Source of the DNA: Micrococcaceae bacterium
Lineage (GTDB): Bacteria > Actinomycetota > Actinomycetes > Actinomycetales > Micrococcaceae
Assembly: GCA_052084925.1 (NCBI GenBank)
Contig: JBQDEV010000015.1
Location: 7,795 to 71,794, forward strand
Reading direction: 5' to 3'
Length of the DNA stretch: 64,000 bases
This document shows, piece after piece, positions 4,715 to 63,925 of this stretch. Within the stretch, counting starts at the first letter, position 1, and each line of letters starts with the position of its first letter. A program made the position numbers and the translations under genes. The notes under the pieces are model-generated. The model had not been told where the DNA came from and searched no databases. It worked only from the letters and a program-made list of their open reading frames with translations.

Positions 4715-7597
<2,883 letters not shown>

Positions 7598-9399: not shown

Positions 9400-10839
9400 C
9401 TAGACCGTGCGCCGCAACGGGACTTCCCGGATGAGCAGCACCGCAACCAGGGCGGGGGTGGCGATCAGCGCGGCCGCCAGGAACATGGGTCCGGCCCCGG
9501 CGGCGTAGCCGTCCATGAGCTGGGAGGCGGTGGCGGCCGTCGCCACGTGCACGGCCATCACCGCGCCCATCACCGAATTGCCCAGTGCCCCGCCCACGGT
9601 GCGGAAGAACGCGATGGCTGCTGACGCTGCCCCGATGTGGTGTACCGTCACCGTGTTCTGCACCGCGAGCATCAGGTTCTGGATGACCATGCCCACCCCG
9701 AGTCCGATCAGCGCGATCTTCACCCCGATCAGCCAGAACGGGGTGGTCGCGTCCACGGCGGAGAGCCAGTAGGCGGCGGCGATGGCCAGCCCGGAGCCCA
9801 GCACCAGGTAGATCTTCCACCGCCCGTAGCGGGTAATAAGCTGACCGGTCACGGTGGTGCCGATCAGGTTGCCGAAAATCAGCGGCAGCGTCAGCATCCC
9901 CGAGGCGGTCGGCCCCAGCCCACGCCCGTTCTGGAAATAGAGACCCAAATAAGCAGGGATCGAGATCATCAGCACGGCCAGGGTCAGCGAGGCGATGATG
10001 GCCAGCAGTGTGGTGCGGGAGCGGAAGATCCTGGGGTCCATCACCGGCTCGGCCACCCGGCGCTCCACCATGATCAGCCCGGTCACCCCCGCCAGTACGG
10101 TGAGCACCAGCAGGGCGGAGGGCCAGGAGACGACGTCGAAGAACGCCGGGTTGCCGGCGAAGGAGAGCCACAGCATTCCGGCGATGGTCGCCGCCGCCAG
10201 CAGGGTGGCGCCCAGCCAGTCGATGCGCACCGGACGCGGTGGTCGCGGCGCCAGGTTCAGCGTCTTGCCGATGATCACCATGGCCACCAGCGCCACCGGG
10301 ATCCCCGCCCAGAACGTCCAGCGCCAGCCGGCCGTCTCCACGAGGAGCCCGCCGATGAGCGGTCCGGCGGCGGTTGCCGTCGCCATGGTGGCTCCCATGT
10401 ATCCGGCGTAGCGGCCGCGCTCCCGCGGGGCGATGATGGTGCCCATGATGGCCATGGTCAGGGCGGCCAGCCCGCCCACACCGACCCCCTGGATCACCCG
10501 CCCCAGGATCAGCACGCCCATGGTGCCGCCGAGTCCGGCCACCAGGGAGCCGAGGGTGAAGATCCCCAGCGCCGTCTGGAACAACCGCTTCTTGTCGAAC
10601 AGGTCGGCCAGCTTGCCCCAGATCGGGGTGGTCGCCGCGTTCGCCAGGAGGGTGCCGGTGAGCACCCAGGAGTATTCCAGCTGCGTGCCGTCGAGTTCCC
10701 GGACGATCACCGGCAGCGCGGTGACGATGATGTTGATGGAGAGCATGGCGGCGAAGAAGCCGGCCAGCAGTCCGGTCAGCGCCCGCAGCACCTCCCGGTG
10801 GCTCATCGGTTCATCGGCGGAGGCAACGGCGTCAGCCAT
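9400..10839 (-). CDS. MFS transporter, DHA2 (14-TMS drug:H+ antiporter) type
   Basis: ATG 10839 (MADAVASADEPMSHREVLRALTGLLAGFFAAMLSINIIVTALP). About 479 aa with around 14 hydrophobic segments. 8-nt overlap with the upstream MarR gene. Confidence 0.8.
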   Translation of the reverse strand: MADAVASADEPMSHREVLRALTGLLAGFFAAMLSINIIVTALPVIVRELDGTQLEYSWVLTGTLLANAATTPIWGKLADLFDKKRLFQTALGIFTLGSLVAGLGGTMGVLILGRVIQGVGVGGLAALTMAIMGTIIAPRERGRYAGYMGATMATATAAGPLIGGLLVETAGWRWTFWAGIPVALVAMVIIGKTLNLAPRPPRPVRIDWLGATLLAAATIAGMLWLSFAGNPAFFDVVSWPSALLVLTVLAGVTGLIMVERRVAEPVMDPRIFRSRTTLLAIIASLTLAVLMISIPAYLGLYFQNGRGLGPTASGMLTLPLIFGNLIGTTVTGQLITRYGRWKIYLVLGSGLAIAAAYWLSAVDATTPFWLIGVKIALIGLGVGMVIQNLMLAVQNTVTVHHIGAASAAIAFFRTVGGALGNSVMGAVMAVHVATAATASQLMDGYAAGAGPMFLAAALIATPALVAVLLIREVPLRRTV

Positions 10840-51924: not shown

Positions 51925-52755
51925 TCAGACAGCATCCCATGCCGTGAGAAAAATAGGTTCTACCGCCTTAGACGAAAGCCCGGCTTCCTTCAGTAATTCC
52001 GCAGCCAGTGTTCCCACAAGCAACGCGACCATGTGATGCGTGCTGAGATCTCCATGCTGTATTGGCGGTGTGTCCAGACCGACCCGATCAGCTTCGGTCT
52101 TCGGCGCGTAGGCAACTGCCAGGTGTGCTGTCGCATGCGTGTACTGAGTCTCCTCACGCCAAGCGGTGTACAAGCCGAGCGTGATGGGCACTGCTTTCGC
52201 TGCGTCGGTGACGGCTTTCACCTGTTGCTTCAGGTCCTTGTCTTCCATCATGTCTGCTACGACGCTCTCCATTGCACTGAGATCGATATCGTGGTCGTAA
52301 CCCATCTCTTTAAGCGTGTCGAAGAAGCCGCTTGTGAGGTTCTTTTCTCGGGCAATGAACGTTTCGAGCACCGCCCCGCGCTTGTCTACTTCCAGCGTTC
52401 GGAGCCAGAGCAGGCGGAACGCGATCTCTGCGAATGCGCGACGGTTCGGCGCGGCCGCGTGAGCGAGCCCCTGAGCTGTCAGCGTTGCGATCACGCGGGA
52501 TTGGTCATACGCTGCCCGCATCCAGCCGATAATGAACTGAGAGTCGTACGCTGCTGGAACATAGGAGAGGTCAAGGGCCAACATTTGCTCGGCCGTCGCG
52601 ATGATGCGGGCTGCCTCTTGTTGCAGCGGGCTCAGGCGCGCCGCTCGCCGTTCCGCTTTTGCTCGCCGTCCGCTCATGCTTTCAACGTTACCCGTAGGCT
52701 GGTGCTCAGCGGGGCTTCCCCAGTTCAGTCTCCTGGCTGTTATCCGTGATGACAT
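51925..52755 (-). CDS. Hypothetical all-alpha protein, first gene downstream of the RT pair
   Basis: 276 aa (249 aa if ATG 52677 is used). No catalytic motif recognised. A helical core with GLAHAAAPNRRAFAEIAFRLLWL is vaguely reminiscent of DUF5677/AbiV-type proteins, from memory and unverified. Confidence 0.5.
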   Translation of the reverse strand: MSSRITARRLNWGSPAEHQPTGNVESMSGRRAKAERRAARLSPLQQEAARIIATAEQMLALDLSYVPAAYDSQFIIGWMRAAYDQSRVIATLTAQGLAHAAAPNRRAFAEIAFRLLWLRTLEVDKRGAVLETFIAREKNLTSGFFDTLKEMGYDHDIDLSAMESVVADMMEDKDLKQQVKAVTDAAKAVPITLGLYTAWREETQYTHATAHLAVAYAPKTEADRVGLDTPPIQHGDLSTHHMVALLVGTLAAELLKEAGLSSKAVEPIFLTAWDAV

Positions 52756-52962: not shown

Positions 52963-55011
52963 CTAGTATACGAACTGGATCGACTTCAGGAGCAACCGTT
53001 CGTAGTAGTGCTCGCTTGCGTCCCAGGAAAACATGGACGGTGTCCTTTGGCTCGATCTGAGACTCTCAACCTGCCTCTTGGAGGCTTCCCCACCCATCGC
53101 CTTCGAGATTTCCTTCGTCGAGGCCCCGGGGAACATGGGGAGGCTAAGTAGAAGAATCGCACGAGCTGTCTCGTGCTCGGGTTGGTGACCGCCTTGCTCG
53201 ATCAGCACCCTTGCCCGATCCAGAAGCCCACGTTTTAGGGCGCTATTCGAGTCAGGGTTCTGGAACCTGCGAAGTAGAGTGAGTACGCCAAATACATCAA
53301 GGTCGCCGATCTTCTTCCCTCGACGCTCGAGGAACGATAGCAAGGTCTCCTCGGGGATCTTCGGATCTACGAATATGAGGCAGTCCAGGAGGAGTAAGGT
53401 GTGCGCTCCGAATGAAGCCTCGTCCTGCACCGCATTAAGCTGCGCAATGATCTCTCGGGCAACTTTGTCGGAAAACTGATCGGTCTCAAGCTTTCCCAAC
53501 CCGTTCACCTTCAGCTCACCCATAGAAGCTGCCACCATCCGTGTCAGTTTCACACTGTGCGACACCGAAGGAGCACCCGAGTAGATGAAGATTGCAACGT
53601 CCAAGACAGCCACAAGGTACTGAACGAGCTTCAACCGAGTTGCATGGATCGTTTTGGGATCTCCGGCTTCGACCGCCGCGTTCAGACACTTCCGGAACGC
53701 TCGGACACTCTTGTCCCTACGACGCCCGAGTTCGTACAGGTAGGAGTTTGCCAACTCACCGTGCTCAAGACCCGTATCCATGAGGAGAGCCTTGTAGTCA
53801 AGGATCGCTTTGCCGGACGGAAAGTACAGGCTGGCTTTCGTCGGTCCAATGTCGGGATCGTACTCATAGTGCGTACGCCGTTTGAGATCCTCGCGGATTC
53901 TCACCTTCGCAACAGACATATGGGATTGCAGCGGCGTATCGAAGTGACGCTGCTTCTGTTCGTTAAGGTGCAGTTTGAAGGTAGACAGCTGCGCAGCAAG
54001 AATCTCCTCGACGCGAGAAGCCATGTGAGGATCAGCCAGGAAGACGAAATAATCGTCCACGTATCGCATGACTTCGTAATTGGTCCCACGATTCAGACCA
54101 ATACTTGCCAGCTCTCGTTCGATCCTTACGTCTACTTCTTGCAGGATGATCTCAGCGAATACTCGCGAAAGCTCAGGTCCGATGATGATCCCGCTGGTCT
54201 CGGCATAGTTGACGTACTGCATGAGGTGATCAAATTTGTCGCCAAACGTTTCCTTGGTACCACGCCTATTTTTGCTGGCGCGGACGCCGTTGGTGACCCA
54301 TGAGACGGTGTGTGTATAAACGCTGTCGAAGCACTTGGAGACGTCTGCGCGCATAAGGTGGGGATATTTGCGTTCGCAGGCCTGGAATTCCGGCGACGAG
54401 TAGAAGCGGTTGATGTTGTTGTATCTACGGTAGCTGAAGTATGAGGAAACGTGCGTGTACTCGAGGTCGGATTGCTCGACGCCGTATGATTCTCGATCGA
54501 TGATGCCGTCAAAAATCGAGCTTGTCTTGGCTTGAAGTCTTGCGACCCTGTGAGGGTGCCTGATTGAGAAGCTACTTCGGTTCGTGTAATAAAGGATCGA
54601 GTCTCGGTGCTCGTGAATAAATGACGCCATTTGCACCATCGAGTGAGGGTGCGGGACCGATAGCTCTCGCGACTTTCCGTTGTTGCGTCGTGATCGGAAC
54701 TTGTAGGGGTGCCGAAGGTCGCAGTTTTTCTTGCCGCCACCACTGAGGTTGAACTCGATTGTCTTGTTGTCGTCAAGGAGGCAGCCCGAGCCTAGGCTGA
54801 TCGGATCGAAGATGAACTCGAGCCAGGATTTCTCAGCCTCACTGAGCCTCGATTTCAGTACGGTGAACTTGTTCTCTCCGGTCCAGTTGAATTTGAGCCA
54901 CCGAAGAAATTCGTATAGTCGCGTGATGTCGAATGGGATCGGCACCTCGTAGGGCAGAATCTCGGATGTCAGCGCACGTAGCGGGTCGCGCTTGGCTACG
55001 CGATACTTCAT
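52963..55011 (-). CDS. Defence-type reverse transcriptase with long helical C-terminal domain (UG/Abi class; UG8-like candidate)
   Basis: RT motifs RADVSKCFDSVYTH, SGIIIGPELSRVFAEIIL, catalytic MRYVDDYFVF, and HLNEQKQ. About 330 aa of alpha-helical C-terminus. No intron maturase or endonuclease domain. Its ATG overlaps the stop of the upstream RT (ATGA). Confidence 0.8.
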   Translation of the reverse strand: MKYRVAKRDPLRALTSEILPYEVPIPFDITRLYEFLRWLKFNWTGENKFTVLKSRLSEAEKSWLEFIFDPISLGSGCLLDDNKTIEFNLSGGGKKNCDLRHPYKFRSRRNNGKSRELSVPHPHSMVQMASFIHEHRDSILYYTNRSSFSIRHPHRVARLQAKTSSIFDGIIDRESYGVEQSDLEYTHVSSYFSYRRYNNINRFYSSPEFQACERKYPHLMRADVSKCFDSVYTHTVSWVTNGVRASKNRRGTKETFGDKFDHLMQYVNYAETSGIIIGPELSRVFAEIILQEVDVRIERELASIGLNRGTNYEVMRYVDDYFVFLADPHMASRVEEILAAQLSTFKLHLNEQKQRHFDTPLQSHMSVAKVRIREDLKRRTHYEYDPDIGPTKASLYFPSGKAILDYKALLMDTGLEHGELANSYLYELGRRRDKSVRAFRKCLNAAVEAGDPKTIHATRLKLVQYLVAVLDVAIFIYSGAPSVSHSVKLTRMVAASMGELKVNGLGKLETDQFSDKVAREIIAQLNAVQDEASFGAHTLLLLDCLIFVDPKIPEETLLSFLERRGKKIGDLDVFGVLTLLRRFQNPDSNSALKRGLLDRARVLIEQGGHQPEHETARAILLLSLPMFPGASTKEISKAMGGEASKRQVESLRSSQRTPSMFSWDASEHYYERLLLKSIQFVY

Positions 55012-56393
55012 CGAGCTCTTCCTTTCCAGATGCTCACGATCTGCTCGATTCGCTTCTGTCGGAACCTGAGAAATGTGTGGTTTGCAAACATCTCAACGAA
55101 CGAGATTTGCGCCATACGATCATTCATCTTCTTGGGCATCTTCGAGGCGTTGCTCTCGAGGAACGTTTGAAGAATCTCATCGAGTTCTGAGAGCTCATCT
55201 GCATCGGGAGCGAGCGCGCTGTTGGAGAAGTAAAGTCCGATAGCGACGTTACTCTTCGAGTTCAGGAGTTTGGTGTTTCCCGCGAGATACCGCACGCGAT
55301 CGAGGAGCAGGCCGTTGTGCCCATCGTTGGGAGAGGCTGGGTTCGGCGAGGTGTCTAACCAGACTTGCAGTGCCTTCTCAAGCCTCAAAACACGTCGCGC
55401 CTTGCGCTTTGTTGTCAGACCGGTAGTGAGACTGCCTCCGGCACGACAGAAGCGGTATCCGAGGTATTCGAGCTCCGTATTCGAAGGATAGTCTCCGCTC
55501 TCGCTGGTGACGAAATCCATCGTCTTTTCTTCGTTGAGAGCAAGCTGGAGCTCGTTCAACTCGGTAACGACTGCGTTCTTCACCTCAATGAGATGGTTCT
55601 CGCTTTCGAGGACCATGATCACGTCGTCTACATAACGTGCGTAGAACAGAACCCCTGGGTGCGTTTTTAGCTTGGAGTCGAAACGACTGAGATACAGCTC
55701 TGCGAGGTGTGAGCTGAGTCCGACGCCTCGCGGTAGCCCGATATTGGACCCTTGAAGTGCTTCGTATTCACTGAGCAAGCGATTGACAAGCTGGATGGTG
55801 ACTCTGTCGAGATCGGCATAAATGGCAAGGCGTTCAGTGAGCACGCTGTGGGGTATGGACTCGAAGAACTCCTTGACATCAACTTTGTAGATGGCATGGA
55901 GATACCCCTTACCGAGAGCTGCCTGGAGTGCTCGCACGATGCTGTTGCGGCTGGGGGCGTCTAATCGTGCAGCGCGCTTGACAGCATCTGCCGCTTGCTT
56001 CGCAGGGTAAGCGATGTACGTCTCAGGGGCGATGCGATAGGTGCGTCTCTGCTTGGGCCCAACCCGGGGACCTTCTCTTAGAGCAAATGTGAACTCGTCT
56101 GCGGACAGCCGTTCTTCAAATTCGAGAAGAGCCTTTTGCATGGCCGCTTCAACAGCCTCGTCGCGTTCTTTACGCAGTTCTTGCCTGTCTTCGCTGTAGT
56201 TTTTTCGTGCGTCGTCGCGAGCCTGTTTGTCTTCAAGTCGAGTGATCTCCTCCAGAAATCGCTCGCGCCTCTCTCGTAACGCCCGGGTCACACGTCGAAC
56301 GTGCGGGTCAATGCGGCTGATGTCCCGCCCACGGCGGTTCTCACTCTCGGCCAGCTCGATGAAGCTGCGAAGCGTGTACGGGATTTTCTTCAC
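55008..56393 (-). CDS. Defence-type reverse transcriptase (UG/Abi class; UG3-like candidate)
   Basis: RT motifs KVDVKEFFESIPH, IGLPRGVGLSSHLAELYL, catalytic YARYVDDVIMV, and ALNEEKT. Charged coiled-coil-like N-terminus. I prefer GTG 56393 (GAGG 7 nt upstream) over the tracked 56486. Confidence 0.8.
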   Translation of the reverse strand: MKKIPYTLRSFIELAESENRRGRDISRIDPHVRRVTRALRERRERFLEEITRLEDKQARDDARKNYSEDRQELRKERDEAVEAAMQKALLEFEERLSADEFTFALREGPRVGPKQRRTYRIAPETYIAYPAKQAADAVKRAARLDAPSRNSIVRALQAALGKGYLHAIYKVDVKEFFESIPHSVLTERLAIYADLDRVTIQLVNRLLSEYEALQGSNIGLPRGVGLSSHLAELYLSRFDSKLKTHPGVLFYARYVDDVIMVLESENHLIEVKNAVVTELNELQLALNEEKTMDFVTSESGDYPSNTELEYLGYRFCRAGGSLTTGLTTKRKARRVLRLEKALQVWLDTSPNPASPNDGHNGLLLDRVRYLAGNTKLLNSKSNVAIGLYFSNSALAPDADELSELDEILQTFLESNASKMPKKMNDRMAQISFVEMFANHTFLRFRQKRIEQIVSIWKGRAR

Positions 56394-56537
56394 GAAGCTA
56401 CCTCGATCCTCGATCTGCCCCCAGGAACACAGATGTGGACGTGAGCGAACAGAGACTCTCGCCGCTGTTGCTTGGCGTCCCACCACTCTGCACTGGGTGC
56501 TTCCGTCCCAGCGCTCCTCAACTCAACCGCTGCGGGC

Positions 56538-57509
56538 TCAGTCATCGACGTCCTCCTTACGGCTACGGTGAGACCGGTCATCGCGCACGCTCTCAGCGCT
56601 TATTGCACCCGCAGCTTCCCAGGCGTGAGAGGCAGGGATCCATCGCAGATCAGAGACGTCGTCCACGATGGCGGGCTCCGCGAAGGCCACACACGTTTTG
56701 AGCAGATCGTCAAATCTCTCTGGCGTGGACTGTTCAAGCCGCTGTTTCCTTCGCCAGATCCCCCACTTCCGCTGCGCCAGGGCAGGCATCCCCGAAAGGA
56801 GCAGGGAGAGTTCCTCAAGCTCAACCTGACGATAGCGAGCAACAACACCGATCGCCTCTTGGAGGTCCGTACCTTCAACGGTTCGGCTCCGGGCGATCGC
56901 GGCGATGTCGGTGAATTCGCGCCAACGTGTGTTCTGCTCACCGCGTTCGAGCGCGGTGACGATCTTCTCCGCGAGCACCATGTGATCGGGATATCCCAGG
57001 AGCCGCAGTGTCCCACCCAAAAGGAGTGGGAGGACCGCTTCTGTGGGTGCAGGCCAGATCGGGTCACCGAAGTTCACATCAATGTGCAGCGCAACCTGTG
57101 CTGTTGACAGCCGGGCAGTTATCTTGACCCGCACGCCGTTGTAGTCTGCTTCGTCACGGATCTGCTCTCCGCTGACGGAGTTCTCATCGAATTCGAGCCC
57201 GTCGTTACGCTGGACCGCGAGGATGTTGCAGACGCGCTGTTCGACCTCGGAGATGTCGTTCGTGAACCCTCGCGCGGCGAAATCGATGTCTCGCGTCGGT
57301 CGGCGTTCGGCGAACGCTGCCAAGAGCACGCCGCCCTTGAGGACAAAGTCTGCGGCGGACTCCGATGCTGCCAGCCGTGCGAGAAAACCTTCCAGCGCAT
57401 AGAGGGTGATGTATTCAGCAGGGTCACGGTTCTGCCGCCGGGCGAGGTTGCGCAGATCGTTGTATGCGCGCCCTGCTGGTGTATCTCTGGAGGGTGTCGG
57501 GGGCGTCAC
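56538..57509 (-). CDS. AbiEii/AbiGii-family nucleotidyltransferase toxin (type IV TA, DUF1814)
   Basis: LKGGVLLAAFAERRPTRDIDFAA ... YNGVRVKITARL ... HIDVNFGDP. GTG 57509 overlaps the AbiEi stop (GTGA). An alternative start is the internal ATG at 57560. Confidence 0.8.
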   Translation of the reverse strand: MTPPTPSRDTPAGRAYNDLRNLARRQNRDPAEYITLYALEGFLARLAASESAADFVLKGGVLLAAFAERRPTRDIDFAARGFTNDISEVEQRVCNILAVQRNDGLEFDENSVSGEQIRDEADYNGVRVKITARLSTAQVALHIDVNFGDPIWPAPTEAVLPLLLGGTLRLLGYPDHMVLAEKIVTALERGEQNTRWREFTDIAAIARSRTVEGTDLQEAIGVVARYRQVELEELSLLLSGMPALAQRKWGIWRRKQRLEQSTPERFDDLLKTCVAFAEPAIVDDVSDLRWIPASHAWEAAGAISAESVRDDRSHRSRKEDVDD

Positions 57510-58084
57510 AGGAGCACCTCCAGTGCTTGACGTATCCGAGGCAATGCTTTCGGGAACCATCCTGCAACCTTGAGTAGCCGCGCGGGCGTGTTTCCTCTCC
57601 GGCGAAGCCACCGTCTCAACGCCTCGTGTGCGACATCGCTGCCTTCTTGGTGCATGAGCCGGAAGCAGTCGACGATGGTCCGCTCCGCCGAATAGATAGC
57701 AACCCCTGCTCCTTCTCCGGCGTCAACGTGTTCTCGTCCGATCTGAAAGGTCTTCGGGTCGAAGCTATGCCAACTTACGTTCTTCAGCCCGGCTGGCTGG
57801 TGGGTTCCGCGTGGCAACGCGATGTCGGAAGCGAAAGGGATCGCATCGCTCAGATCATGGTGCACGAGAGCGCTCGTCAGGCACAGTGTCGCGTCGTCGC
57901 GCAACGCGGTCGCAGCGGCGAGCGCAGTGAAGGCTGGCGGGATGGCCTCAGGTCGCACGTAGACGCCACGCCCCACGCGCTCGATCTCGTCACGGTCGAG
58001 CAGCGAGTAGACCTGGTCCTTGCTGAGCCCCGCTGCGCGCGCGTCCTCCAGCGTGAACGCAGCAGCAAGCTCGTTCTTCGACAC
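57506..58084 (-). CDS. AbiEi-family antitoxin/transcriptional regulator
   Basis: N-terminal wHTH (FTLEDARAAGLSKDQVYSLLDRDEIERVGRGVYV) plus an AbiEi_4-type C-terminal domain. GTG 58084 is preceded by AGGAGG. Confidence 0.8.
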   Translation of the reverse strand: MSKNELAAAFTLEDARAAGLSKDQVYSLLDRDEIERVGRGVYVRPEAIPPAFTALAAATALRDDATLCLTSALVHHDLSDAIPFASDIALPRGTHQPAGLKNVSWHSFDPKTFQIGREHVDAGEGAGVAIYSAERTIVDCFRLMHQEGSDVAHEALRRWLRRRGNTPARLLKVAGWFPKALPRIRQALEVLL

Positions 58085-58257: not shown

Positions 58258-58971
58258 TCAGTTGAACTGGAACGTCCGGTAAGAGCTCTGCACGTTGAAA
58301 CGGCGACCCTCCTTCCGTCGCTGAAGGAACCCCGCGACTGTGTCAATGTCTCTCGGGCGCATGCCCAATTCCCGGCACTTTGCGCGCACTTGCTCGACGG
58401 TGATCGGAACCCAGCGATCCGGCCGATTCATCATGTCCGCCTTGAGCTTGTGTTCTTCGTTCCACTTCAATCCTGACGAGTACCCAGCCGCCATAGAGGC
58501 AATGTGCTCGAGAATTCCCTCGACCCCGTTCGGTAGAGGCTCTCGCTCCTGAGCATCGGCTTCCCGAGTCGTCGGCGGCAGAGTTGAGTCGCGCAGAAGT
58601 TGCGCGGGGTTGGCATCTTCGACCCATTCCACTGTCTCTTCCTCGTTCCACTCAATAACGGCAAGCGCATCCGCCTCAACACCCCACAGTTCGTTCAGGT
58701 GCTTACGATCAGGCCAGGCATAGAGGACTCGATGTCCAGCAAGAGCCCCAGTCGAGAGTCCTCGCCAGCTCAGGTGCAGCACCCCAGGTCGGGTGACCAA
58801 GCGTTTCAGGCTGTCGCCGTGGAACTGCTTCTGCGGTGTGACAACCACGACCGACCCGCCGGGCTGCTCGAGCAGCCATTTGATCGCGCGCATGTTCTGT
58901 GGTTCGCGGGATGTCTCACCTTCACTCAATCGAGAGATAGCTACGGGAAACTGGTAAGCGCTGGAAGTCAT
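58258..58971 (-). CDS. Hypothetical protein (no recognisable family)
   Basis: 237 aa. Good RBS (AAGGAG 7 nt upstream of ATG 58971). Two-domain appearance separated by an acidic Pro/Thr linker. Confidence 0.55.
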   Translation of the reverse strand: MTSSAYQFPVAISRLSEGETSREPQNMRAIKWLLEQPGGSVVVVTPQKQFHGDSLKRLVTRPGVLHLSWRGLSTGALAGHRVLYAWPDRKHLNELWGVEADALAVIEWNEEETVEWVEDANPAQLLRDSTLPPTTREADAQEREPLPNGVEGILEHIASMAAGYSSGLKWNEEHKLKADMMNRPDRWVPITVEQVRAKCRELGMRPRDIDTVAGFLQRRKEGRRFNVQSSYRTFQFN

Positions 58972-59089: not shown

Positions 59090-60271
59090 TCAGCTTGCCT
59101 TCCCGAATGCTTGTTCCAGGAACTCGGCTGTGATCGGGTTCACTGCCTCGTTGCGGCGAATGTAGTGCTCTCTCGTGATCGATGGGTCGCTGTGGCCGAG
59201 GAGTTCGGAGGCAAGCTGCAGTCCTCCGATTTCGTTGATCGCTGTTGCGGCGGTCCGGCGGAAGCGGTGCGGGGTCACGTCTGCGACCCCGGCTTTATCC
59301 ATGACGTCGCGGAGCTGCCTGCGGACGTTGTTGGTCGTGTGCGGCGTCCCGACACGGGTCGCGAACAGCAGCGCGTCCGGGTGTGTGAAGCGGATCTTCT
59401 TGAGTCGCGCTTTGATCGCACGGAGCGCGAACCCTGGTAGGGCGACTCGTCGAACAGAGCGGGCCGTCTTGGGGTGATCCTGTCGGTGCGTGGGCTCGCC
59501 TTTACGACTCACGATCGTTCCCGAGATCCGCACGGACGGGATCGGAGCGTCCAGATCAAGGTCTCCGAGTCGGATCGCGAGGAGCTCTCCGATGCGGGCG
59601 GAGGTACCGAGCATGACTTCGACGATCTGCCCCAGTTGCCCATCCGGCTTCGGGCCTGCCTTGATCAGGCGTTGCTCCCACGCGCTGATGCCAGTGCGGA
59701 TGGCTTTGAGCTCGTCCCAGGTGAAGATGTCCGGGGTGCGTGCGGGGCGGCGGAGCCGGGAGACATGGTCCATCGGGTTGCGCGGGATGACTTCGTGCCG
59801 CACCGCGAGCGAAAGGACGAGGCGGAGAACGACTCGGGCTTGACGTGCCCGGTTGTAGCTCTTCTTCGCGAGTTGCTTGAGGAAGTAGTCGCAGCGTGCC
59901 ACTCCGATCTCGCGGAGCGTGACCTCTTTGAAGAACGGCAAGACGAGGGTGCGCATGTTGCGCTCGTAGAGCAGCCTGGTCGTTGGCGAGAGCCGATCCT
60001 CGAGATGCATGTCTTCAAGCCAATAGGACACGAGCGCCGGGAAGGAACTGTCTGCGCTCATCCCCGAGAACCCTGGATGGAAGAGATCTCGTTCGGAGAG
60101 CTTCTTCTTCAGCGCGCGCTCCGCGCTGGGCCTGGTCGCACCGGTGACTTGGACGTGTCGCCCCTTCCCATCCCAGTCGCGGTATCGCGTGCGAGCGACG
60201 TATCGTCCACCGTCGGTGCGGCGGGTGGTGATGATGCCGAAGGTTCCGATCGGAGTGCGGGGTCTAGCCAC
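59090..60271 (-). CDS. Tyrosine-type site-specific integrase
   Basis: Arm-binding-like N-terminus (GRYVARTRYRDWDGKGRHV), SAM-like core-binding domain, and catalytic residues in TSARIGELLAIR ... HRFRRTAAT ... LGHSDPSITREHYIRR. GTG 60271 with GGAGG upstream. Confidence 0.88.
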   Translation of the reverse strand: MARPRTPIGTFGIITTRRTDGGRYVARTRYRDWDGKGRHVQVTGATRPSAERALKKKLSERDLFHPGFSGMSADSSFPALVSYWLEDMHLEDRLSPTTRLLYERNMRTLVLPFFKEVTLREIGVARCDYFLKQLAKKSYNRARQARVVLRLVLSLAVRHEVIPRNPMDHVSRLRRPARTPDIFTWDELKAIRTGISAWEQRLIKAGPKPDGQLGQIVEVMLGTSARIGELLAIRLGDLDLDAPIPSVRISGTIVSRKGEPTHRQDHPKTARSVRRVALPGFALRAIKARLKKIRFTHPDALLFATRVGTPHTTNNVRRQLRDVMDKAGVADVTPHRFRRTAATAINEIGGLQLASELLGHSDPSITREHYIRRNEAVNPITAEFLEQAFGKAS

Positions 60272-60532: not shown

Positions 60533-60642
60533 TGCAGGAGGAAGGCCGACCGGTGAAATTGCGCATACCTCTATTCTTCGCGGGTCGACCGGGCGAAGCT
60601 CGGAGTTCCTCAACGATGAACCGAAAGACGTGTGGCGTGCTC

Positions 60643-62397
60643 TTAACCTTCGTCGAGATCGATAGAAAAGTGTAGTCGTTGACCAAGGATGCTGCCGGTT
60701 TCGTCACCATCGTGGAGTCTGAGCACGATCGCGTCATCGAAGATCGCTCGGTCAGTGAACTCGCCCCAGGGAACGTGATCGCTATTTACTGTGAGGAGGT
60801 GCTGGTAGCCATACTCAGTCGCTGACGCAGCAGCAATTTCAATGGCTCGAGCGGTCTGTCTCTCATCGACGTCGGCGAAGATCGCGCTGTCATGGATGAG
60901 GAAGCCAGGGCCTCGGTCGTCGCTCGCGAGATCTTCGCTCAATGCGATGTCGTAAGCGAAGATGGCCATCAGGTGGACGCCCCCCGATCCGGTCTTCGGG
61001 AGCACCACCTTGAACTGCATGCCGCTCTTTCCTGGGGACACGCGTAGGTCGGCAGGTTCGCCGTAAAGAGCTTCCATGATCTCGCCGAACCGGGCAACGA
61101 TCCCTGCGCGACGCTCGAATCTCTCCTGCATGTCGAGTTTCGTCCGAGTGACAAGGTCGAGTTCGTCAGATTTCAGCTTGGACTTACGGTCGCTCAGATC
61201 GCGGAGGGTTTGGATCTGCTCTTCCACCTGGGCAACTTCAACTTGTGATTCGGCGAGGCTGCGCTGCAGTGCAACGAGGTCGTCGAGCGCTCCACCGGTT
61301 CGCAGAAGCTGCATGTCTTGCTCTTGCTGCTCAGCGAGACGTGCTTGCTCGCTCTCACGCTGCAGGATTCGTTCACGGAGCCGACGGGTCTCTTCTGCGA
61401 GGTAGGCCGCGCGGTTTGTAGTGATCTGCCCCTGGAACTCCGCTGCTTCATCAAGGCTACGGACGATTGCGTCGCCTAGGACGATGCCAGCTTCGGCGAA
61501 GAGCCGTTCGACGTTGAGGTCGCTCGAGGTGAACTCGTCCTGCACCTGCGACTCATACAGTGCGAGCTGCTGCCGATCCGCAAAGTTCTCATTGCCGAGG
61601 GCTTTGATTCGCTGGGTGCTGTCCTGAACCCGCGACTCAATGTCTCGGTATTCGGGTAGGACTGAGAAGGTACTGATGTCCTTCGTCAGTCTTTCTGCGC
61701 GACGTTGGAGCCGCACGAGCTGCGGTTCCAACGCTGCGATGCGCGATTCAATCGAGTTGTCTGGATCGTCGGCGAGCGCGACGCGTGCCTTGCGGTCCCG
61801 GAGGTTCGCCCATTCCTTTGCGAATCGCCAGTCGAGGTTCAGCAGGTAGGCGTTTTCTGCCTGCACTGCTTCGGCGGCCTGGTTCGCGAGGGTGCTGAAC
61901 GGTCCGAGCAGGGAGTCAGCACGAAACCGAGCGAAGTGGCGTATGAGGCTGCGGAACGTGGGCGGGTCCGCAGGCATCCCGTCGCGAACGAAGCATTCAC
62001 GTCCAAGCCAGTTGGTCCACTTGCGAGTGCCCACTGTTGCGGTGCCGTCGTCAGCGAGATCCTTCTGCTCGACAATCCCTGCAGCGACCACGCCGCCTTC
62101 GAGGTGGATCTGACCGGAGGTATCTGGGCTGCGCGATGCCAGCACAGTGACCCCGGCTCGGGTAGTTAAGGACAGCGTGAAGTACCAGTTGTTGCCCCTC
62201 ATCTGTTCGAGGCGGTCGCTCATATTCGCGCCCAGGCAAAAGTCGATGAGCGCGATGGCGGTAGTCTTACCGAGCCCGTTTCGCGAGTCGGTCTTCGTGG
62301 CTTCTTTGGCGCGATCTGCAACGACGATGTTGAGTCCATCGTTGAAGCTGATTGACCGGAACCCCGAGAAACTCGCAGTGAGCGAATTCAAGCGCAT
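60643..62397 (-). CDS. ABC-three-component (ABC-3C) system ATPase, DUF2326-type
   Basis: ATG 62397 (MRLNSLTASFSGFRSISFNDGLNIVV). Walker A SRNGLGKTT, a long coiled-coil insert, and a C-terminal PGFLIHDSAIFADVDERQ (Walker B/D-loop region). Confidence 0.75.
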   Translation of the reverse strand: MRLNSLTASFSGFRSISFNDGLNIVVADRAKEATKTDSRNGLGKTTAIALIDFCLGANMSDRLEQMRGNNWYFTLSLTTRAGVTVLASRSPDTSGQIHLEGGVVAAGIVEQKDLADDGTATVGTRKWTNWLGRECFVRDGMPADPPTFRSLIRHFARFRADSLLGPFSTLANQAAEAVQAENAYLLNLDWRFAKEWANLRDRKARVALADDPDNSIESRIAALEPQLVRLQRRAERLTKDISTFSVLPEYRDIESRVQDSTQRIKALGNENFADRQQLALYESQVQDEFTSSDLNVERLFAEAGIVLGDAIVRSLDEAAEFQGQITTNRAAYLAEETRRLRERILQRESEQARLAEQQEQDMQLLRTGGALDDLVALQRSLAESQVEVAQVEEQIQTLRDLSDRKSKLKSDELDLVTRTKLDMQERFERRAGIVARFGEIMEALYGEPADLRVSPGKSGMQFKVVLPKTGSGGVHLMAIFAYDIALSEDLASDDRGPGFLIHDSAIFADVDERQTARAIEIAAASATEYGYQHLLTVNSDHVPWGEFTDRAIFDDAIVLRLHDGDETGSILGQRLHFSIDLDEG

Positions 62398-62398
62398 G

Positions 62399-62626
62399 TC
62401 AAACTTCCCATCGGAGAACGCCAGAATTGATGGTGACTGCACCGATCATGAAGAGCAGCGTCAGCGCTTCGGTGAACGAGTCGAAAGATGCATCCGTTGC
62501 GCTGCTTCGGTAGGCGTGCCAGAGCTCGCTAACCGTCGGGTTGCTGTCGCGTAGGGGCAGGATAGTCGCTGCGCGACCGAGGATGCTATCCGAAGCGGGC
62601 ACGTATTTGGTCGGGAGGATCATCAT
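62399..62626 (-). CDS. ABC-3C middle component
   Basis: 75 aa: MMILPTKYVPASDSILGRAATILPLRDSNPTVSELWHAY ... LTLLFMIGAVTINSGVLRWEV. The start overlaps the effector stop (ATGA). Its stop lies 1 nt before the ATPase ATG. Confidence 0.65.
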   Translation of the reverse strand: MMILPTKYVPASDSILGRAATILPLRDSNPTVSELWHAYRSSATDASFDSFTEALTLLFMIGAVTINSGVLRWEV

Positions 62627-63498
62627 GCCGGTGCCTCGAAGACATCGCACACCTGGAACAAGTGGCAGAGGACTGCTGCGGCCGCTGCATGCAACACGAA
62701 GAGCCGACCTCCATCTGTCTGGGGAGAGATGGCGCTGCTGGCACCGAAGTCAATCAGTGAGAGGAAAAGTGCGTCACCCTTCGCGCCGCTGGCAACGAGT
62801 CGGTCATACTCGCTAACAAATCCTGCTCGCAGCCGTTCCGGGAAGCGTGAGGAGAGCTGTGCCTGACGGCGGATGTACTCGGCTACCTGAGGAGCCTGAG
62901 CGAGCCCGATGTTCATTGTGGGGCGAATAGCGTCAGTGAGCTCGTTCGTGTCCATCTTCGTCTGCGGTGGCACTGCGATCATCGGAGTCGATGGAAGGTC
63001 GATGTCGCCGTCCGCGAAGGCGTTGCAGACGATCTGTAGCTCCGCGAACGACACCTGCGTCGCCCCAGCCGACAGCCGATCAGTGACTGCTTTTTCGGCT
63101 GCGCGCTTCCACTCTTTGAGCGTCTCGACCGGATAGTCCGAATCGATCTTGTCGACGAGGCTGTGATGGTGCGCGCAGAGGACGAGCAGATTCGGATAGC
63201 TATCTCGCTGTGCGGGGGTGAGTGCGGGATTAGGACGAGGTCCGTCGTCTGAGGATCCTTCGATGTGCGCAATCTGACCGAGGATCACAGGGCCGTCAGT
63301 CTTGAACTCAACGATAGCCGAGCCGCAGTTCGGGTACGGGCAGAAGTGACCCGACGTGAGGAACAGTTGTTTCAAGGTCAAGTGCGAGTAGTTCCGTGCC
63401 ACCTGACCTCCCCGTCTGGTTGCGTGATTCTGGTACGACGCGGCGAGCCCACGTAGGGACTCGCCATGTCCCATCCTCTCATGTGTCCGAACTCGCAA
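62623..63498 (-). CDS. HNH endonuclease fused to an ABC-3C C-terminal (CTD) adaptor domain: predicted effector
   Basis: CPYPNCGS ... IAHIEGSSDDGPRPN ... YPNLLVLCAHHHSLVD (HNH with Zn-ribbon Cys/His). About 170 aa of helical C-terminus. First gene of a three-gene overlapping operon. Confidence 0.7.
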   Translation of the reverse strand: MRVRTHERMGHGESLRGLAASYQNHATRRGGQVARNYSHLTLKQLFLTSGHFCPYPNCGSAIVEFKTDGPVILGQIAHIEGSSDDGPRPNPALTPAQRDSYPNLLVLCAHHHSLVDKIDSDYPVETLKEWKRAAEKAVTDRLSAGATQVSFAELQIVCNAFADGDIDLPSTPMIAVPPQTKMDTNELTDAIRPTMNIGLAQAPQVAEYIRRQAQLSSRFPERLRAGFVSEYDRLVASGAKGDALFLSLIDFGASSAISPQTDGGRLFVLHAAAAAVLCHLFQVCDVFEAPA

Positions 63499-63598
63499 GA
63501 GCCACGCTCTGGTACTGTCCGCGTGTGATTCCTCGGTGACGAGCGCGCCGCAGGAATCCGTCGGGTATGGAGCTTACAAGCCGTTCGACTGCGGAGCC

Positions 63599-63925
63599 TC
63601 AATCGGCGACGCGAGCTTGCCGCACCTCGCGGAGGCGAGCGCTGGCGAGAAGGGCGAGGCTGACGGGGCCGATCCAAAGAAACTTCAGCCCGTTCCAGAG
63701 CAGCAGGAGGAAAAGCGGGTAGAGCCACTTACTCCAGCCCTGCTCGATGAGTCCGGTGCAGGTGGCTGCGATCATCAGGTAGACGACCCCGAGGAACATC
63801 GCGGGGATTCCCCATTTGAGGCCGCGTCGGGTGCGCAGCGTGTCGAGCAAGATGTTGGTGGGCATCCAGCGGCGCATGAAGATGCGGGTGTGGATGCTGG
63901 CGTTCCAGAGCCGGTTCAGGAGCAT
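63599..63925 (-). CDS. Hypothetical small membrane protein
   Basis: 108 aa with two or three TM helices (WGIPAMFLGVVYLMIAATCTGLI, LYPLFLLLLWNGLKFLWIGPVSLALLA). Lies 100 nt upstream of the ABC-3C operon. Confidence 0.45.
   Translation of the reverse strand: MLLNRLWNASIHTRIFMRRWMPTNILLDTLRTRRGLKWGIPAMFLGVVYLMIAATCTGLIEQGWSKWLYPLFLLLLWNGLKFLWIGPVSLALLASARLREVRQARVAD

Follow-up and report, generated by a model that had tools for sequence, protein, structure and literature searches.

The Lamassu class of defence systems has been studied with phage assays, mutants and several cryo-electron microscopy (cryo-EM) structures (PMC12663957). Its type II, also known as DdmABC, is the same as the ABC-three-component (ABC-3C) systems (PMC10586767; 10.1101/2025.06.23.660979; 10.1101/2025.03.14.643221). 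In the Vibrio and Salmonella systems that carry a Cap4 effector, one copy of LmuA is sequestered through its C-terminal domain in a complex with two copies of LmuB and one of LmuC. DNA ends are sensed, and an ATP-dependent rearrangement frees LmuA, which then assembles into a tetramer whose nuclease site is composite. Defence in these systems is lost when the Walker A motif or the nuclease is mutated, and the characterised Lamassu effectors are toxic at high expression. The HNH nucleases Cap5 and SPARHA (short Argonaute-HNH) are indiscriminate and are activated by the formation of tetramers or filaments. In the SPARHA paper, the effectors of ABC-3C systems are grouped with these nucleases in one HNH clade, and an activation by oligomerisation is predicted for them. 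Here, we analysed a three-gene operon in a stretch of 64,000 nucleotides from a Micrococcaceae bacterium (GenBank assembly GCA_052084925.1, contig JBQDEV010000015.1, positions 7,795 to 71,794 of the forward strand). This whole stretch is called the window and its own numbering is used throughout.

An earlier reading of the sequence (here the original prediction) had proposed that the operon encodes an HNH effector with a C-terminal domain (CTD), a middle component and a DUF2326 ATPase. All defining features of a type II Lamassu or ABC-3C system that could be addressed by sequence and model analysis were found. From the gene content, the intact catalytic motifs, the folds, the conservation, the mobility and the defence-island context we conclude, with a probability of about 0.8, that the three genes are a complete and intact short (type II) Lamassu/ABC-3C abortive-infection system with the order lmuA-lmuC-lmuB.

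The lmuA, lmuC and lmuB genes are tightly coupled

The list of open reading frames (ORFs) of the window contains three co-directional ORFs on the minus strand for the effector, the middle component and the ATPase, at the positions given in the original prediction. The predicted overlapping and abutting junctions were also present. The stop codon of lmuA overlaps the start codon of lmuC in an ATGA ('GCATGATGATC'), and just one base, a C, separates the TGA stop of lmuC from the ATG of lmuB. In related loci the junctions are 4-nt overlaps. Both the tightly coupled A-C-B order, evident from the ATGA overlap and the 1-nt gap, and the position of a small middle-component gene between those of the effector and the ATPase are features of a type II Lamassu. 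The whole system is compact and comprises 918 codons in total.

The start of the effector gene had to be revised. The predicted ORF at 62623-63498 encodes 291 residues if it is read from TTG 63498, and this start was dropped because GTG 63402 is preceded by a Shine-Dalgarno sequence at a distance of 4 nt, because nearly all of the 105 LmuA homologues have 259-266 residues and the N-terminus M[AP]R[NS]Y, and because the nucleotide homology with four related loci starts at 63395-63413. Judged from these sequence comparisons, lmuA almost certainly starts at GTG 63402 and encodes 259 residues. A scan of the operon for promoters and terminators showed nothing exceeding the shuffled expectation, and among inverted repeats in the 5' leader of lmuA one weak 14-nt pair was observed (63437-63470).

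The motifs and the predicted fold of LmuB

LmuB scored 86.8 bits against Pfam DUF2326 (1.4e-24; cut-off 28.7) and matched the PADLOC model PDC-M68B over its full length (2.1e-191). The PADLOC LmuB models were matched more weakly, with 1e-15, 5e-9 and 6e-9. The 584-residue ABC ATPase with a coiled-coil insert and the motifs NGLGKTT and FLIHDSAIFADVDERQ, as originally described, could be recognised in the sequence and in the model. The conservation of the motifs was followed in alignments of 19 and 80 homologues with identities down to 28%. In both alignments the Q-loop glutamine Q179, the signature S471-G-G473 and the D-loop DERQ were conserved. The Walker B motif reads FLIHDS, and S504 was invariant in the 19-sequence alignment and nearly so in the 80-sequence alignment. 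The catalytic glutamate is replaced by this serine (IHDS), and the Walker B is predicted to be weakened for hydrolysis. It fits the pattern hhhhD[Q/S/T/E] that has been reported for short Lamassu, and the Walker A is intact (GLGKT with K44), as in type II systems.

The AlphaFold2 model of LmuB (predicted local distance difference test, pLDDT, 87.4) showed a split ABC head and an antiparallel coiled coil of about 250 residues. The coiled coil is inserted between the N- and C-terminal halves of the head, which is the architecture of the SMC/Rad50-like ABC ATPase of type II Lamassu. When the model was compared to the PDB with Foldseek, the top match was YydD of Bacillus subtilis (9A6C_A, an integrative/AI model and not an experimental atomic structure), with 1.7e-26, a template modelling (TM) score of 0.61 and 16% identity over the full length. 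Two LmuB chains solved by cryo-EM came next, one from a type I Lamassu (9UX7_A, 4e-12) and the other from LmuACB of Salmonella (9HQX_B, 6.6e-12), and chains of Rad50, SMC and JetC ranked among them.

The modelled fold of LmuB is thus best described as SMC/Rad50-like. This does not count against the ABC-3C reading because the ATPases of ABC-3C systems, LmuB included, are themselves SMC/Rad50-like. The original prediction had named an SMC-, RecF- or OLD-type ATPase with unrelated neighbours as an outcome that would speak against it; here, the neighbours are the cognate ABC-3C partners. A membership in the Rad50-Mre11/SbcCD group was considered and rejected. No CxxC zinc hook was found anywhere in the 584 residues of LmuB, and its partners are an HNH-CTD10 and an MC6 protein, not Mre11 or SbcD.

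Two contigs of 151 nt and 519 nt from a freshwater metatranscriptome (run X25) were about 97% identical to lmuB (window 60995-61640). A search for RNA runs from the host organism itself found none.

The middle component LmuC

The predicted middle component of 75 residues was confirmed together with its ATGA overlap. LmuC scored 43.8 bits against Pfam MC6 (2.6e-11; cut-off 27.2), and it matched no PADLOC model. A small ORF that is not conserved in homologous loci would also have spoken against the original prediction, and lmuC was present in every homologous locus checked. At the sequence level it was found in 10 of 10 related loci, in two of which the gene callers had missed it, and it was additionally called as MC6 in two further loci (L011-L013). 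Compared to the Nocardia copy, the non-synonymous divergence (pN) was 0.16 and the synonymous divergence (pS) 0.73, which argues that lmuC is a real gene under strong purifying selection. With a profile of LmuC 780 cluster representatives were obtained at E<=1e-3, and almost all of the 150 matches listed were stand-alone proteins of 73-85 residues.

In one protein of 392 residues (P0323), an unrelated N-terminal domain is followed by CTD10 (residues 181-301) and MC6 (residues 313-382) in the same chain. P0323 is either a natural fusion of LmuA and LmuC or arose when the stop codon of the usual ATGA junction was lost. In either case, the fused CTD10 and MC6 domains would fit a direct contact of the LmuA tail with LmuC.

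The LmuC proteins of other systems are larger. In Vibrio, the characterised LmuC is at least 149 residues long and contacts DNA with K87 and K149, and the LmuC of a lactococcal system has 242 residues.

The effector LmuA

LmuA matched the PADLOC model PDC-M68A over its full length (5.5e-92) and was modelled by AlphaFold2 with a pLDDT of 82.8. It has the two parts expected for a type II Lamassu effector, an N-terminal enzymatic domain and a helical C-terminal domain of the ABC-3C type, and in this respect the original prediction stood. The catalytic and zinc-binding residues of the HNH domain are all present (H46, N71, H79, H80 and D84, with the zinc ligands C21, C26 and C76), and they were invariant or nearly so among 28 homologues. 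The first 115 residues or so matched PADLOC models of CBASS endonuclease effectors (best 2e-19), the SAVED-HNH models and the Shedu SduA model. The HNH domain also matched that of SPARHA (9OM4, 3.6e-17) and of Cap5 (7RWK, 1e-7), and in the Foldseek comparison activated Cap5 (8FMF, 1.4e-4). An assignment of LmuA to CBASS Cap5 was rejected: the match is confined to the HNH part (about residues 1-115 of 259), the tail is of the CTD10 type and no CD-NTase gene was found nearby.

The helical tail, a bundle of six to seven helices in the model, is presumed to be the docking and oligomerisation domain. Its score against Pfam CTD10 was 19.7 bits, under the cut-off of 28.1. The assignment is backed by its relatives, since CTD10 was found in 17 of the 28 homologues and the tail matched in BLASTP (1e-7) the effector tail of Vibrio metoecus, which itself scores 57 bits on CTD10. 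At the family level, these sequence matches identify the tail of LmuA as a probable CTD10. A weak resemblance was also observed to YydB of 9A6C_B (Foldseek probability 0.77 over 143 columns). The layout with an effector-CTD, a middle component and a DUF2326 ATPase was therefore borne out by DUF2326 and MC6 above their cut-offs, CTD10 at the family level, and the PADLOC and fold matches. In the Pfam scan that had been proposed as a check, CTD10 stayed below its cut-off on LmuA itself, and the HNH domain was recognised through PADLOC, 9OM4 and Cap5.

The Pfam model PF20275 (CTD10) exceeded its gathering cut-off on effector tails and also on the coiled-coil arm of ATPases, with up to 65.7 bits. 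This was observed at about residues 280-400 of proteobacterial DUF2326 ATPases (L009:4001-5740, L007:4001-5749, P0103 and P0111). A homology between the effector tail and the coiled coil of LmuB was rejected, as hhalign of the family alignments gave a probability of 0.7% and BLASTP gave nothing. By these comparisons the CTD10 model seems to be heterogeneous and to mix two unrelated regions, and database labels of "CTD10" on ATPases are probably misleading.

The effector of Vibrio metoecus (L009:2849-3763) carries its CTD10 tail on the same MC6/DUF2326 chassis and has another N-terminal domain without HNH. This domain of about 170 residues had no Pfam or PADLOC match and is possibly an uncharacterised Lamassu effector domain. 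Since the Vibrio effector shares only the tail with LmuA and differs in the N-terminal domain, effector domains are swapped on one chassis.

Table 1. Positions of the genes, motifs and domains of the operon in the window
Feature	Position	Strand	Description
lmuA	62623..63402	-	effector, 259 aa, Cap5/SPARHA-type HNH nuclease and helical CTD10-type C-terminal domain
lmuC	62399..62626	-	middle component, 75 aa, MC6 family
lmuB	60643..62397	-	SMC/Rad50-like ABC ATPase, 584 aa, DUF2326/YydD family, ATG start
Shine-Dalgarno sequence GGGGAGG	63407..63413	-	4 nt upstream of GTG 63402, read from the sequence
HNH (beta-beta-alpha-metal) nuclease domain	63058..63402	-	LmuA residues 1-115
C-terminal helical domain	62626..63054	-	LmuA residues 117-259, about 6-7 helices, conserved FxxCDVFExP motif at the end
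Walker A / P-loop SRNGLGKTT	62260..62286	-	LmuB residues 38-46; N40, G43 and K44 invariant in the 19- and 80-homologue alignments
Antiparallel coiled-coil arm	61063..61827	-	LmuB residues ~191-445, apex ~291-308, without CxxC zinc hook; secondary structure of the model
Variant Walker B and D-loop GFLIHDSAIFADVDERQ	60856..60906	-	LmuB residues 498-514; H502, D503 and Q514 invariant

Distribution and genomic context of the cassette

The cassette of effector, MC6 and DUF2326 genes recurs with coupled junctions in many hosts. The identity of the ATPase to that of the window is 75-79% in Nocardia, Rathayibacter and Arthrobacter, 42-94% in actinobacterial metagenome contigs, 35% in Hyphobacterium and 30% in Vibrio metoecus. 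An identical operon was present in several food-fermentation metagenomes, at full word share. The recurrence in diverged loci and the constraint on the small ORF argue that the three-gene arrangement is not due to chance.

The DNA homology to the relatives is confined to the cassette, from 60659 to 63395/63413, and to 60626-63685 for the closest relative. Because the homology ends at the cassette borders, the three genes move as a unit, as a discrete mobile cassette of 2.8 kb in a defence island. The flanks differ in every relative, and genes for defence or mobility abound in them; such genes were found in the window and in four related loci. In the window, the neighbours are an integrase gene (59090-60271), AbiEi/AbiEii and Drt3a/Drt3b. 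DISARM-like genes are found in L005, methyltransferase and helicase genes and an integrase next to smpB in L009, the Wadjet genes jetABC and a RES toxin gene in L013 (Arthrobacter), and a TrwC relaxase gene and DUF87 conjugation genes in L011.

Just past the integrase, the window encodes at 52963-58084 the reverse transcriptases Drt3b (9e-148) and Drt3a (1e-86) and an AbiEi/AbiEii pair. As these modules adjoin the integrase that lies beside the Lamassu genes, the latter belong to a stack of at least three defence modules in the island. The island stretch has a GC content of 52-56%, compared to about 60-63%. Two further ORFs, 58258-58971 (237 residues) and 51925-52755 (276 residues), had no PADLOC match at E<=0.001, and the former also had no Pfam match at E<=0.01. 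Direct repeats of the att type that could bound the island were looked for between 50500 and 64000, and the matches were short and due to chance. The right-hand edge of the island is probably outside the window.

Two of the related loci showed signs of rearrangements around the cassette. In L013 (5249-10427) its position is directly upstream of a complete set of Wadjet genes (jetABC) in divergent orientation, and on its other side a short DUF3375 (JetA-like) fragment is followed by the gene for the RES-domain toxin. This looks like an insertion of the cassette into a duplicated Wadjet locus or next to one. Upstream of lmuA, the window contains a gene for a small membrane protein (63599-63925) with a homologue in L011, the closest relative (10011-10361, 75% DNA identity), where it is found on the other side of the cassette with its relative orientation reversed. 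The L011 cassette is flanked by imperfect inverted repeats of 38 nt (6598-6635 and 10048-10085). The comparison of the two sequences suggests an inversion or duplication around the cassette.

Proposed mechanism and alternative explanations

From the homology with the systems of Vibrio and Salmonella we infer the stoichiometry of the complex, its trigger, the oligomerisation and the abortive outcome. In the uninfected cell, a LmuB dimer and LmuC would hold one LmuA by its C-terminal domain and keep it monomeric and inactive. The fusion of CTD10 with MC6 in P0323 and the cross-link model of YydD and YydB (9A6C) are indirect hints of such an assembly (LmuA1-LmuB2-LmuC1). The complex would sense DNA ends, hairpins or replication intermediates of a phage or plasmid, and an ATP-dependent engagement of the heads would then lead to the release of LmuA. 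The free LmuA would oligomerise via its tail, probably to tetramers, and its HNH domains would thereby join in a composite active site, similar to activated Cap5 and to the SPARHA model. A non-specific cutting of DNA could then cause the death or arrest of the cell ahead of the spread of the phage or plasmid. This order of sequestration, sensing, release and oligomerisation is proposed because it was found in the Vibrio and Salmonella systems and because the HNH relatives Cap5 and SPARHA are activated by oligomerisation.

Several observations weigh against the assignment to type II Lamassu. When LmuB (as a single sequence and as a 19-sequence profile) and LmuC (as a single sequence and as a 9-sequence profile) were searched against the PDB, the matches were due to chance only, and the same held for the C-terminal domain of LmuA in the sequence searches. 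No solved LmuA C-terminal domain was among the top 50 fold matches of LmuA, and the CTD10 score of its own tail is sub-threshold. The link to the solved Lamassu complexes is made by the PADLOC LmuB profiles and by fold matches with modest TM-scores of 0.37-0.39, which are depressed by the geometry of the coiled coil. With 75 residues against at least 149 in the DNA-touching Vibrio protein, LmuC may have a different role. The evidence for transcription is thin, as the metatranscriptome contigs are a weak sign that the lmuB of a close relative is transcribed and a carry-over of DNA is possible. The original prediction had attributed very little experimental characterisation to the class. This is no longer so for the class, for which phage assays and cryo-EM structures now exist, and it holds for the HNH/CTD10/MC6 subtype, on which no experimental paper was found in the literature searched.

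The location of the operon raises the question whether the same proteins mainly exclude plasmids and other mobile elements and act in competition, as is the case for DdmABC and plasmids in Vibrio cholerae, and thus serve the island that carries them instead of an anti-phage abortive infection. Lamassu/DdmABC eliminates plasmids as well as phages, an integrase lies beside the cassette in the window and in L009, and the L011 cassette adjoins the relaxase and conjugation genes. However, most of the neighbours are anti-phage genes (DRT3, AbiE, the DISARM-like genes and Wadjet), and the two roles are not mutually exclusive, as the characterised Lamassu do both. We regard it as unlikely that plasmid exclusion is the main function. 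A direct immunity, in which the HNH nuclease stays on LmuBC and cuts only the foreign DNA that has been sensed, without release, oligomerisation or killing of the host, appears less probable still. Its target would be a foreign DNA end or a replication intermediate, as for Rad50-Mre11/SbcCD or Wadjet. The Rad50/SbcC-like fold of LmuB, the proposed derivation of Lamassu from SbcCD and the HNH domains of many restriction enzymes, which act as targeted dimers, would agree with this. The characterised Lamassu effectors, however, form tetramers after their release and are toxic when highly expressed, and the nearest HNH relatives, Cap5 and SPARHA, are indiscriminate and activated by oligomerisation. 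The interchangeable effectors, with a Vibrio copy that has no HNH, also suit the release of a toxin better than a targeted cutting.

The likeness of LmuB to the heads and the coiled coil of Rad50 and SMC proteins could also point to a housekeeping complex for DNA repair or chromosome maintenance, in which the HNH nuclease has replaced Mre11/SbcD. The patchy distribution, the different genomic context in every relative, the restriction of the DNA homology to the cassette and the location in a lower-GC island with an integrase argue against such a complex, as do the missing zinc hook and Mre11-type partner, and we give it hardly any credence. An abortive-infection system of the type II Lamassu family remains the preferred explanation.

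Within this type II Lamassu assignment, the HNH/CTD10/MC6/DUF2326 clade might be a structurally distinct, minimal Lamassu, in which LmuB alone senses the DNA, LmuC only latches the effector tail, and CTD10 drives a Cap5/SPARHA-like HNH tetramer. We put this forward as a tentative and rather doubtful possibility. In this reading, 75 residues would be too few for the DNA-contacting globular domain of the Vibrio and Salmonella complexes. If true, one ATPase chassis would control unrelated effector folds via different sequestration geometries.

Comparison with known systems

The system type was reportedly already catalogued by Krishnan and colleagues in 2020. It is also represented by PDC-M68 in PADLOC, and HNH is already catalogued as a short-Lamassu effector type (PNAS 2025), so the operon defines no new class, and the mechanism is known at the class level. 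It adds an intact and very compact Lamassu of the HNH subtype from a high-GC actinobacterium. The compact HNH version that had been proposed as a test case is intact and of modest interest; it poses the questions whether the sequester, release and oligomerise mechanism of the Cap4-Lamassu extends to HNH effectors and which role a minimal LmuC of 75 residues has.

The adjacent PDC-M68A and PDC-M68B genes that PADLOC requires for PDC-M68 were found, and both components match end to end in the window and also in the relatives. PDC-M68 is a computational candidate only, with models for two genes and none that is matched by the middle gene. In B. subtilis, the YydB-YydC-YydD system provides the best structural match for LmuB, and DUF2326, the YydD family, is common to both. 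The pairing of YydD with YydB comes from cross-linking mass spectrometry according to the title of the 9A6C entry. YydB shows a weak likeness to the helical tail of LmuA and presumably has a different, non-HNH effector domain.

The HNH domain is of the same clade as that of CBASS Cap5 and SPARHA, with the same catalytic histidines and the Cys/His zinc site. The control differs from theirs: a SAVED domain, cyclic-nucleotide sensing and an Argonaute partner are absent, and the HNH domain is tethered to a CTD10 tail and is predicted to be controlled by LmuB and LmuC. Other characterised Lamassu have lipase effectors or CTD12 tails, whereas the system of the window combines HNH with CTD10 and MC6.

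The closest comparison is with the short Lamassu of Vibrio cholerae (DdmABC, Lamassu Vc-Cap4) and Salmonella enterica (LmuACB), for which the structures 9NY5, 9NYG and 9HQX are available. Their effector is a Cap4 PD-(D/E)xK nuclease, whereas it is an HNH (His-Me finger) nuclease here. CTD10 takes the place of CTD7, the 75-residue MC6 that of an MC3 of at least 149 residues, and the Walker B has D-S instead of D-Q. A similarity to the solved chains was not found at the sequence level in the PDB sequence and profile searches. In common with both systems are the order of effector, small middle component and SMC-like ATPase of about 600 residues, the effector with an N-terminal nuclease and a helical C-terminal domain, and an ATPase whose Walker A is intact and whose Walker B lacks the catalytic glutamate. 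The absence of a zinc hook is shared with Vc-Cap4, and the fold of LmuB matches that of the Salmonella complex.

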